From the UHGV virus genome UHGV-0222504: 11,201 bases of DNA. One strand, given 5' to 3'. Source of the DNA: a virus. This document shows positions 3,001 through 6,000 of the stretch, in pieces. Within the stretch, counting starts at the first letter, position 1, and every line of letters starts with the position of its first letter. Made by a program: the position numbers.

Positions 3001-6000
3001 GGAACTTAACCGCTGGTTTCGTGACGGAAGAGGACTTTATGTTCATGTTATTCGTTGGGAGCCAGAAACACAGCGCGTTATCTATCTTCGCAAAGACTAC
3101 CCGCATGAGTGCTTTAGTCCTTTGTGGAAATTCAGGCGTGATTTTGTTGAGTGTGAAGGACCACCAGCACATTGATTCTGCCATTCCGGGACGTTACACT
3201 GTTCAGGCACCTTATAAAGCGGGTGCCGGGATTGGCGTCCTGGAATTGATCAAGGCGATATATGACGCGCCAGCGTCTTTTTTATCGTCCGCATTTGCTC
3301 ACATCAAAGTTATGGTGGGCTGGGCGGGGGCATCGAAAGATGCGCCGGTTTCCTTGATCACCGGTTACGCCAACCCCGTTCAGTTCACCACCAGCGAAAT
3401 TGGCGTTTCCGGTGGTGGAAGTATTTCACCGATCAAGGAGGCTGCCATCATGGCTACTGTCCCAGCCCTCACTCGTCTGAATGATGAAGACTTACATAAA
3501 CTCAGTTATGTAACAACTGCACTACGTGCTCTGCGCAAGGTAACTCTTTCGGATCCGCAGGCACATCAGGTTCTGGTAGAAACCCTTCTTAACTTGCAGG
3601 CTGAACGTATTCGTCTGGCGGATAAGGCTAATTTTCATATTCACCGTCTCCTGAATATCAGCGGAGGGCATCGTCATGCTTAATCCGTTGCTCCTCAACA
3701 TTTACCGTTTATTTCAGCGTAAAAAAATATCAACACCCACAGTTGGGCAGTGGTACACCACGCCAGCAGGGCATGTTCTACGTGTCAGCCTGGTTGACCG
3801 TGAATGTCAGAAGGTGATTTGTGAACCGCTGGGCCGTAATTACCGCGTCAGTATGCCGCTTATAGCCTTTCGCTCCGGAAAAAACATGAAGCATCTCGGA
3901 GGTGCAGCATGAGTATGGAGCTGATGGTTAAAGCGATGAAAATTCGAGTGGGTAATCCATTGCGAAAACTGGTTCTGATCAAGCTGGCTGATAATGCCAG
4001 CGATCAGGGTGAGTGCTGGCCCAGCTACCAGCATATTGCTGACCAGTGCGAGATTAGCAAACGTTCTGTGATGAATCATATTGCGGCCCTTTGTGAGTCC
4101 GGGCTGGTAAAAAAAGTCACCCGGAAAGGTGAAAAAGGTAACTCAAGTAATATCTATCTCCTTCATCTGGATGGTGCAGGAGATTCACTAGGGGGTAGTG
4201 CAAATAATTCACTATCTGGTGCAGCAAATTCACCAGGTAGTGCAGGAGTTGCACTAGGGGGTAGTGCAGGAGATTCACCCAGAACCAGTCACTCTTTTGA
4301 ACCAGTCAAAGAACCAGTCAATGAACCAATAGCTGTTGGTGCATCTGCTGATGAGTCTGTGCGAGTTCGTTCAAACCGACCGGAATACTCTCCGGAGTTT
4401 GAGCAGGCATGGCTGGCATATCCCAAACGTGCTGGTGGCAATTCAAAATCTGCAGCCTTCAAAGCCTGGAAAGCCCGTTTGAATGAGGGGGTAAACCCCG
4501 AAACCATGCTGGAAGGTGTGAAACGCTATGCGGGCTGGGTATCTGCGATGGGTAACAGCGGCACACAATTTGTGAAACAGGCTGTCACGTTCTTTGGTCC
4601 GGATCGTCATTTCGAAGAATCCTGGGAAGTTCCTGCGGTATCTGCAGCCAGACGTGAGGACCCGTACTTCAAAGCCAGTTACGACAACGTGGACTACAGC
4701 CAGATCCCGGCAGGATTCAGGGGGTGATCATGAGTCTTTTGAATGAAGTTCAGAAATTCATTGAAGCCCATCCGGGGTGTACTTCCGGAGACATTGCGGA
4801 TGCTTTTGCAGGTTACTCACGGCAGCGCGTTCTGCAGTGGGCGTGTGGCTCACCGTTGTGAAGGAGATACACGCAGACATTTCCCACGCCTGACTGAGAG
4901 AGCGCAGGAGCCGGAACCACAACCAGTTCGTGAAACCAGACCTGTGCGCAATTTCTATGTCGGCACTAACGACCCGCGGGTGATTTTGTGCCTGACCCGC
5001 CAGGCGGAAGAACTGGAGTCCAGGGGCTTATACCGTCGTGCTGCAACGGTGTGGATGGCGGCATTCCGTGAAAGCCACTCCCAGCCAGAACGAAATAATT
5101 TTCTGGCGCGTCGTGAACGGTGTTTACGGAAAAGCAATAAGCGGGCTGCATCAGGTGAAGAGTGGTATCTGTCAGGGAATTACGTGGGGGCTTAATGAGT
5201 AATAAATATTGCCAGGCGCTGGTGGAACTGCGGAACAAACCAGCCCATGAACTGAAGGAAGTGGGCGATCAGTGGCGCACGCCGGATAACATTTTCTGGG
5301 GAATTAACACCCTGTTTGGTCCGTTTGTTCTGGATCTGTTCACTGACGGTGATAACGCCAAATGTGCCGCGTATTACACGGCGGAAGACAACGCGCTGGC
5401 ACATGACTGGTCAGAACGTCTTGCGGAGCTTAAAGGGGCTGCCTTTGGTAATCCCCCATACAGCCGCGCCAGTCAGCATGAGGGGCAATACATCACTGGC
5501 ATGCGTTACATCATGAAGCATGCCAGTTCCATGCGTGATAAAGGCGGGCGCTATGTTTTCCTGATCAAAGCTGCCACCAGCGAAGTGTGGTGGCCGGAAG
5601 ACGCAGACCATATTGCTTTTATTCGCGGGCGTATTGGTTTTGAACTGCCTGCCTGGTTTATCCCGAAGGATGAGAAGCAGGTGCCGACAGGCGCTTTCTT
5701 CGCTGGTGCTATTGCTGTTTTCGACAAGACCTGGAAGGGACCGGCAATCAGCTACATCGGGCGCGATGAACTTGAGGCATGTGGTGAGGCCTTTCTGGCG
5801 CAGGTTCGCCAGCAGGCGGAAAAACTGGTCAGGGAGATGGCGGCATGACGACGTTAACTCAATGCCAGCAGCAGGTGCTGGATATGCTGATTTCTTACCA
5901 GAAAGAACGTGGCTTCCCGCCAACCAATCAGGAGGTGGCAACCATGCTGGGATACCGTTCAGTGAATGCAGCGGTGGAGCATCTTCGCGCACTGGAGAAA

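Follow-up and report, generated by a model that had tools for sequence, protein, structure and literature searches.

This analysis concerns viral genome UHGV-0222504, of which a stretch of 11,201 nucleotides (hereafter the window) was examined, and in particular its 272-residue replication initiator, encoded at 3909-4727 on the plus strand. The window corresponds to the early-right part of a lambdoid prophage resembling Shigella phage SfV. We consider it fairly likely that an SfV-like replication origin, at about 4172-4328, lies within the linker-coding part of its own initiator's gene, and that a DnaT-like tail on the initiator couples this origin to loading of the host DnaB helicase. The original prediction had described origin iterons inside an 'O-like' gene that is followed by neither a helicase nor a helicase-loader gene, and had proposed that host DnaB/DnaC is engaged either by the initiator's C-terminal domain or by one of two proteins encoded just upstream.

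Five copies of the motif GTGCA-N5-T(T/G)CAC occupy positions 4174-4278 with start-to-start spacings of 24, 21, 21 and 24 bp. All read on the plus strand: iteron 1 (GTGCAGGAGATTCAC, 4174-4188), iteron 2 (GTGCAAATAATTCAC, 4198-4212), iteron 3 (GTGCAGCAAATTCAC, 4219-4233), iteron 4 (GTGCAGGAGTTGCAC, 4240-4254) and iteron 5 (again GTGCAGGAGATTCAC, 4264-4278). With one mismatch at most, the pattern GTGCANNNNNTTCAC matches nine times in the window against an expectation of 1.03, a count that none of 200 shuffles reached, and the five sites are grouped within 105 bp. The predicted number of sites, their two-turn spacing and their place in the linker-coding part of the gene thus hold, but the near-palindromic character ascribed to these 15-bp iterons is only partial: the sites are self-complementary at 8-10 of 15 positions, the fourth copy having perfect 5-bp inverted arms. 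Adjoining them on the same strand (4281-4332) are three exact copies of a 12-mer, GAACCAGTCA, starting at 4282, 4299 and 4311, and a degenerate fourth, GAACCAATAG, at 4323, which together form a candidate unwinding or loading site. The iterons fall in initiator codons 89-124 and all repeats in codons 89-141, between the N-terminal HTH_36 winged helix and the conserved C-terminal domain. The segment adjoining the iterons has a GC content of 0.42-0.45 and an A-rich top strand. No DnaA box (TTWTNCACA) was found in the whole window; a DnaA-dependent origin is therefore not indicated.

That the repeats are a by-product of a low-complexity Gly/Ser/Ala linker growing by slippage, the real origin lying elsewhere, strikes us as very improbable. 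All spacings in the window are multiples of three, the encoded peptide is repetitive (GAGDSLGGSANNSLSGAANSPGSAG...) and the repeat copy number differs among strains, as slippage would have it; a disordered linker, however, would tolerate synonymous change, and synonymous sites are near-invariant exactly over the repeat segment. In a set of 106 distinct homologous genes, the most frequent codon at each conserved residue accounts for a fraction of 0.95-1.00 of the sequences over residues 91-140, as opposed to 0.62-0.84 over the two folded domains. Third-position conservation is at least 0.9 from about 4172 to about 4327, compared with 0.4-0.7 on the flanks, and within 4172-4328 the few variable sites lie mostly at codon positions 1 and 2, with loss of the codon-3 periodicity of variation.

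The homologues depart from the slippage account in two further ways. First, iteron sequence follows the DNA-binding domain. Residues of the N-terminal domain co-vary with iteron sequence, and initiators that combine the same C-terminal domain with other N-terminal recognition helices carry other repeats (GTGGGGCAGGAGCTG, GGTGCAGCAGTTTC, GGTGTAACTCCTGCA and TTACTGATTCGGTAA; in locus L015, six copies of the near-perfect palindrome GTCCCAAATCGGGAC), such that six classes of DNA-binding domain correspond to six different iterons. Second, the reading frame of the repeats varies among homologues, and with it the encoded peptide. Their spacings are often not multiples of three (38/22/24 in L013, 24/22/23/22/23 in L016 and 20/62/17/22/24 in another), so that the same DNA word is read in different frames, one word in L013 being translated as, for example, GAGAD and VGQEL. 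Initiators that are otherwise near-identical are 242, 250, 272, 294 or 302 residues long, the difference consisting of whole sets of linker repeats. The synonymous constraint, the co-variation with the DNA-binding domain and the off-frame spacing together argue that the repeats are DNA elements rather than a peptide by-product; iterons are indeed present in homologous initiator genes, where they are maintained at the DNA level instead of being driven by coding, an outcome in favour of the original prediction. The element AGAAYCAGTCA is kept in homologues with different iterons, and its C/T changes alter amino acids. Because the specificity iterons adjoin 12-mers that are common to different iteron classes, we treat 4172-4328 as one cis-acting element, the origin core. 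The repeats behave as origin iterons in the manner predicted from ori-lambda, and it is by analogy with ori-lambda, where iterons occupy the same position in gene O, that we infer origin activity for this segment.

Distant relatives of the C-terminal domain occur outside the Enterobacterales, in Paraburkholderia (L015-L017) and in methanotroph metagenome-assembled genomes (L014 and L018). They retain linker iterons, some of them perfectly palindromic, and are without the DnaT-like tail; their genes are followed by those for Walker-A proteins of 595-642 residues or uncharacterised proteins of 256-267 residues.

The initiator itself belongs with phrog_270, 'replication initiation protein' (E 2e-88), and 5460 homologues were found. 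Its N-terminal winged helix (3957-4109, residues 17-67) matches HTH_36 at 44.1 bits against a cut-off of 25 and is presumably the iteron reader. The core of the C-terminal domain (4371-4628, residues 155-240; YSPEFE...YPKRAGGN...FFGPDRHFEESW) defines a family with 4493 representatives at 50% clustering, and the combination of HTH_36 with the YPKRAGGN...FFGPDRHF domain is that of the HTH_36 phage initiators of PHROG 270. The designation 'O-like' is borne out by architecture and not by sequence: Phage_rep_O (PF04492), for which lambda O itself scores 123 bits, has no match in the initiator at E≤0.1, and a BLASTP comparison with lambda O gave nothing significant (best E 0.019 over 22 residues), the N-terminus being of HTH_36/DnaD_N-like type. 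An AlphaFold2 (AF2) model built on a 14-sequence alignment was unusable (predicted local distance difference test (pLDDT) score 55.8). A rerun with 50 sequences reached a pLDDT of 89.5 and shows three main helices and one short one; a Foldseek search of the PDB with this model returned no match, and sequence searches of the PDB, with the whole initiator and with a 50-sequence profile of the C-terminal domain, returned spurious matches only. The model, a match to phrog_1701 ('DnaD-like helicase loader') and a DnaD_N score of 24.3 bits, under the cut-off of 27, point to a DnaD-like organiser, and the initiator is a putative member of the DnaD-like replisome organisers known from Gram-positive bacteria and phages of these hosts.

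The last 32 residues of the protein (4629-4724, residues 241-272) constitute a swappable module. The initiator ends in ...VDYSQIPAGFRG and DnaT of Escherichia coli MG1655 in ...SQIPPGFRG, so that the terminal peptide SQIPAGFRG, encoded at 4698-4724, shares eight of nine residues with the DnaT C-terminus. In 105 DnaT orthologues the tail RDxNxxSxPDxxIPxGFRG is conserved at 0.97 or more at 12 positions, as strongly as the folded domain; it lies outside the Pfam DnaT domain (PF17948, residues 89-154), directly after this DNA-binding domain. PF17948, the three-helix domain that binds single-stranded DNA (ssDNA), gave no Pfam match in the initiator. The reading of the whole C-terminal domain as a DnaT domain was rejected on the family hidden Markov model (HMM); the tail alone matches.

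The same peptide recurs on other proteins. A longer form of the DnaT motif terminates other initiators of the same C-terminal-domain family (...VNHVSEPDTEIPPGFRG; in P0157, ...GRDVNQLSQPDNSVPPGFRG), which share less than 50% identity with one another in the clustered library. YdaU of the Rac prophage, a DUF1376 protein (L261, 1620-2477), also carries the long form and ends in QVNTVSLPDSAIPPGFRG / ...VNTVSLPDSAIPPGFRG. YfdO of the K-12 prophage CPS-53 (L269, 4379-4747), a relic, joins a C-terminal domain of lambda-O type to the exact tail of the window, as does the intact initiator of PhiR49_1_star; both are followed by yfdN/PerC, dam, lexA-DBD (LexA DNA-binding domain) and rusA genes as in the window, with no P gene. 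Taken together, the long-motif initiators, YdaU and the YfdO/PhiR49_1_star pair identify the tail as a portable module found in at least four unrelated domain contexts. A literature search on this motif in phage initiators found nothing; the resemblance has nonetheless been seen implicitly, since some annotation pipelines name these proteins 'primosomal protein I'.

As the original prediction had it, no helicase or loader gene follows the initiator; PerC-like, Dam and LexA-DBD genes come next instead. Among the ORFs (open reading frames) of the window, searches of Pfam, PHROGs and NCBIfam gave no match to DnaB, DnaC/IstB or lambda P. The annotations of complete SfV (37 kb) and mEp460 (44.5 kb) list no helicase, loader or primase, and among 80 viral contigs of the window type there was not one with an ORF resembling DnaB, DnaC or P at a distance of up to 5 kb. 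Phage Ayreon, recorded as infecting E. coli K-12, carries the module of the window as well.

The real loader might instead be a phage protein that escapes recognition, be it the 78-residue protein encoded upstream (3676-3912, plus strand), the CII-like protein or another small ORF, the tail then serving oligomerisation, ssDNA binding or regulation. We regard this as quite improbable, and neither of the two upstream proteins put forward as loaders in the original prediction can be upheld in that role. No P- or DnaC-like domain was found in either using Pfam, PHROGs and NCBIfam. The 278-residue ORF (2847-3683, plus strand) matches only Phage_ASH (residues 117-210) and PHROGs described as 'transcriptional regulator'; it belongs to the Ash family of immunity-region genes, and in sister phages that share the initiator its place is taken by a Rha-Ash gene. 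Two RNAs lie within it on the plus strand, both at Rfam gathering level: the Hfq-binding RNA isrK (3207-3283, 64.2 bits) and a C4 antisense RNA (3308-3395, 82.3 bits), which suggest an antirepressor control region of the P1 immI type. Both RNAs overlap the stretch that matches Phage_ASH, and one may ask whether a conserved RNA contributes to the Ash 'protein family' signal. The 78-residue ORF, for its part, overlaps both neighbours, sharing an ATGA overlap with the initiator start, has no assigned function and matches only phrog_1153, a conserved companion of this initiator family; its position and lack of assignment are what favour it as a loader. Phage phiP27 (L263, NC_003356) has an unannotated 73-residue ORF at 4501-4722, between L16 and L17. 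This phiP27 protein is 52% identical to the 78-residue protein and precedes an initiator with DnaC-like and DnaB genes directly downstream; because it coexists with them, the 78-residue protein is no stand-in for a loader. The finding that DnaT lacking residues 154-179 shows lower cooperativity of ssDNA binding (PMC4132743) is consistent with a tail used in DNA binding, yet phages of the L217 and PhiR49_1 types share the tail and differ in its neighbours.

The connection between the tail and the missing helicase emerged from a classification of initiator tails in about 240 loci. The DnaT-like tail is present in about 160 loci and about eight initiator contexts; a phage DnaB-like gene accompanies it in none of them, and a phage DnaC-like gene in about 40. 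Non-DnaT tails are accompanied by both DnaC-like and DnaB-like genes in 73 of 73 informative loci, comprising 38 with ...LNF tails, 29 with ...DYGxxxxW tails and six with others. The DnaC-like proteins also differ: those beside DnaT-tailed initiators match host DnaC along its full length, N-terminal region included, at 48-50% identity, in contrast to those beside phage DnaB, which match only the AAA+ part, at 31-34% identity. Two natural recombinants are instructive. P0043 equals the window protein up to ...FFGPDRHFEESW and then continues into a different tail (...DYGxxxxNW), with IstB/DnaC-like and DnaB-like genes downstream; P0054 joins another core to the DnaT-like tail, with a PerC-like gene downstream. 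In both, tail and helicase genes switch together at a junction inside the gene, immediately after ...FEESW. Counted as about eight versus five lineages with no exceptions, the association has a probability of about 1 in 1300 by exact test, on informal definitions of lineage. Three apparent exceptions were set aside: L147 is a truncated locus, L100 has a gene with the DnaT-like tail in which the terminal G is changed to W, and L020 is a contig of 273 nucleotides.

A further tail class, ...(D/N)YG.T..P.WA(R/K)..., was noted in the same C-terminal-domain family on P0129, P0139, P0142, P0183, P0237 and P0240; in L141 and L153 it is accompanied by DnaC-like and DnaB-like genes, a hint that the 'tail code' may reach further.

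How the module might work can be outlined as follows. The N-terminal winged helix would bind the five iterons, probably as dimers, given that the iterons are half-palindromic, and the conserved GAAYCAGTCA 12-mers would be where the strands probably open or the helicase enters. The phage brings no helicase, loader or primase of its own; a detachable DnaT-peptide tail on the initiator would instead dock the origin complex onto the host DnaB-loading machinery. We infer these roles and the partner of the tail. The most parsimonious partner is host-type DnaB/DnaC, to whose loading the tail would couple the origin-bound initiator, and PriA/PriB is the alternative. The idea that the C-terminus recruits host DnaB/DnaC is favoured circumstantially by the DnaT-like tail and by the fact that this tail goes strictly with the lack of a phage DnaB, the partner being putative.

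Were the tail to dock PriA or PriB, the origin-bound initiator would seed a PriA-type primosome where the origin is opened or forms an R-loop, leaving host DnaT, DnaC and DnaB to complete loading as at phiX174 pas sites, ColE1 and Mu. We judge this unlikely. It draws on preprimosome structures in which the DnaT C-terminal domain touches PriA and the DnaT linker touches PriB (PMC13377028), and the tail comes straight after the DNA-binding domain of DnaT; the reported interface, however, is assigned to the folded C-terminal domain and not to the tail (PMC13377028). The location of the origin within a transcribed gene would also suit a PriA route. On the other hand, a mimic of DnaT bound to PriA would be a competitor of DnaT itself, which this pathway cannot do without, and the PriA/PriB route offers no explanation for why the tail occurs together with host-type DnaC paralogues.

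Beyond the window, and more tentatively than for the coupling of its origin to host DnaB loading, we entertain the possibility that the DnaT C-terminal peptide RDxNxxSxPDxxIPxGFRG is the DnaB/DnaC docking motif of the E. coli preprimosome and has been captured repeatedly by temperate-phage initiators for loading of the host helicase. The recipients would be unrelated proteins (the HTH_36/DnaD-like type, those with a lambda-O-type C-terminal domain and the DUF1376 protein YdaU), which would load the host helicase without a loader of their own or with a DnaC paralogue only, and the initiator tail would then be a portable code that predicts the helicase system of the phage.

Several observations weigh against the coupling of the origin to host DnaB loading by the tail. 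The window tail matches DnaT over its last nine residues only, without the upstream SEPD part, and the family HMM of the C-terminal core showed no similarity to DnaT, DnaC, lambda O or lambda P. A cryo-electron microscopy paper of 2026 leans towards another part of DnaT than the tail, its N-terminal domain, as the possible recruiter of DnaB/DnaC (PMC13377028). As the tail adjoins the downstream genes, linkage alone could explain part of its association with helicase genes, and the roughly 160 DnaT-tail loci represent only about eight lineages. The DNA beside the iterons, at the GC content given above, is not strongly AT-rich, unlike that of lambda, and the small uncharacterised ORFs of these phages are possible novel loaders.

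Parts of this picture are already on record, namely the module and the bare lack of a following loader, in SfV and in the 'Eru6' replication unit. For an origin placed inside the initiator gene, lambda is the paradigm. 'Initiator-solo' phage replication modules were reportedly described by Weigel and Seitz in 2006; if so, the lack of a loader as such has a precedent. What appears new is the recognition of this family's linker repeats as true iterons beside a common 12-mer element, together with the modular C-terminal tails and the link between the DnaT tail and helicase-less replication. If the tail is the coupling device, host coupling would make a phage loader dispensable and would explain how a lambdoid phage can get by without P, DnaC or DnaB; the tail would also provide a short, transferable peptide with which to probe the hand-over from the PriA-PriB-DnaT primosome to DnaB/DnaC. 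The type of initiator tail may, furthermore, predict dependence of a phage on the host helicase. An experimental system is at hand, since E. coli is the recorded host of Ayreon (K-12) and mEp460, and two relics of the tail persist in cryptic prophages of K-12, in YdaU (Rac) and YfdO (CPS-53). The module also occurs in Shigella serotype-converting phages and in the Shiga toxin (Stx)-converting phages of enterohaemorrhagic E. coli, where toxin dose is controlled by replication.

The remainder of the window conforms to a lambdoid early-right region. A cI-like repressor gene (1290-1964, minus strand) is followed by cro, a CII-like gene (2287-2850), the 278-residue Ash-family ORF, the 78-residue ORF and the initiator, the equivalent of SfV orf39 and of the Eru6 helix-turn-helix protein. 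Located 3' of the initiator, in order, are genes for PerC-like, Dam, LexA-DBD, RusA, KilA/Rha-like, DUF968 and Q proteins. Positions 2200-6200, which include the initiator, are 97.2% identical in DNA to SfV, where orf39 is annotated 'replication protein', and 96-97% identical to several Stx-converting phages, mEp460 and others. The PerC-like gene (ORFs 4730-4861 and 4743-5195) has, relative to SfV orf40 and mEp460 gp44, a 23-bp deletion near 4835. This frameshifts the PerC-family (yfdN-like) gene and cuts off its N-terminal 43 codons, so the copy in this prophage is probably a pseudogene. Of 5426 complete E. coli genomes, 2718 contain at least part of the initiator gene, some in as many as five copies; only 897 genomes hold it at 80% completeness or more, and many copies are accordingly remnants such as CPS-53.

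Among known systems, the SfV orf39/Eru6 unit is the same module, with 97% DNA identity to SfV and to the Stx phage Stx2a_WGPS2 and the same gene order (an Ash or Rha-Ash gene, a small ORF, then the HTH_36 protein), and differs in that the PerC-like gene is frameshifted in the window. Stx2a_WGPS2 is the type of Eru6, and the replication proteins of Eru phages were described as wholly uncharacterised in the paper that defined these units (PMC8951638). Lambda ori/O resembles the window module in its two-domain initiator, its place after cII in the pR operon and its four or five iterons, spaced by about two helical turns, in the linker-coding part (spacings of 20/24/23 in lambda versus 24/21/21/24 here). 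It differs in having Phage_rep_O rather than HTH_36 at the N-terminus, a P gene after the initiator and a strongly AT-rich flank, and the C-terminal domain in the window is of another family and ends like DnaT. The L17-L18-L19 module of phiP27 and its relatives (initiator, DnaC-like, DnaB-like) have the same C-terminal-domain family, small upstream ORF and linker iterons, but their tails end in ...DKLTF, ...ENLNF or ...DYGxxxxNW and they encode DnaC-like and DnaB-like proteins. Rac YdaU-YdaV likewise combines a DnaT-like-tailed initiator with the lack of a phage DnaB; it differs in the DUF1376 N-terminus of its initiator and in the gene that comes next, which encodes YdaV, a paralogue of DnaC with 50% identity; the window has no counterpart to YdaV. 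With E. coli DnaT, finally, the initiator shares the extreme C-terminal peptide IPxGFRG, in the form SQIP(P/A)GFRG, yet DnaT is recruited by PriA and PriB, whereas the window initiator would be directed to its origin by sequence-specific iterons.

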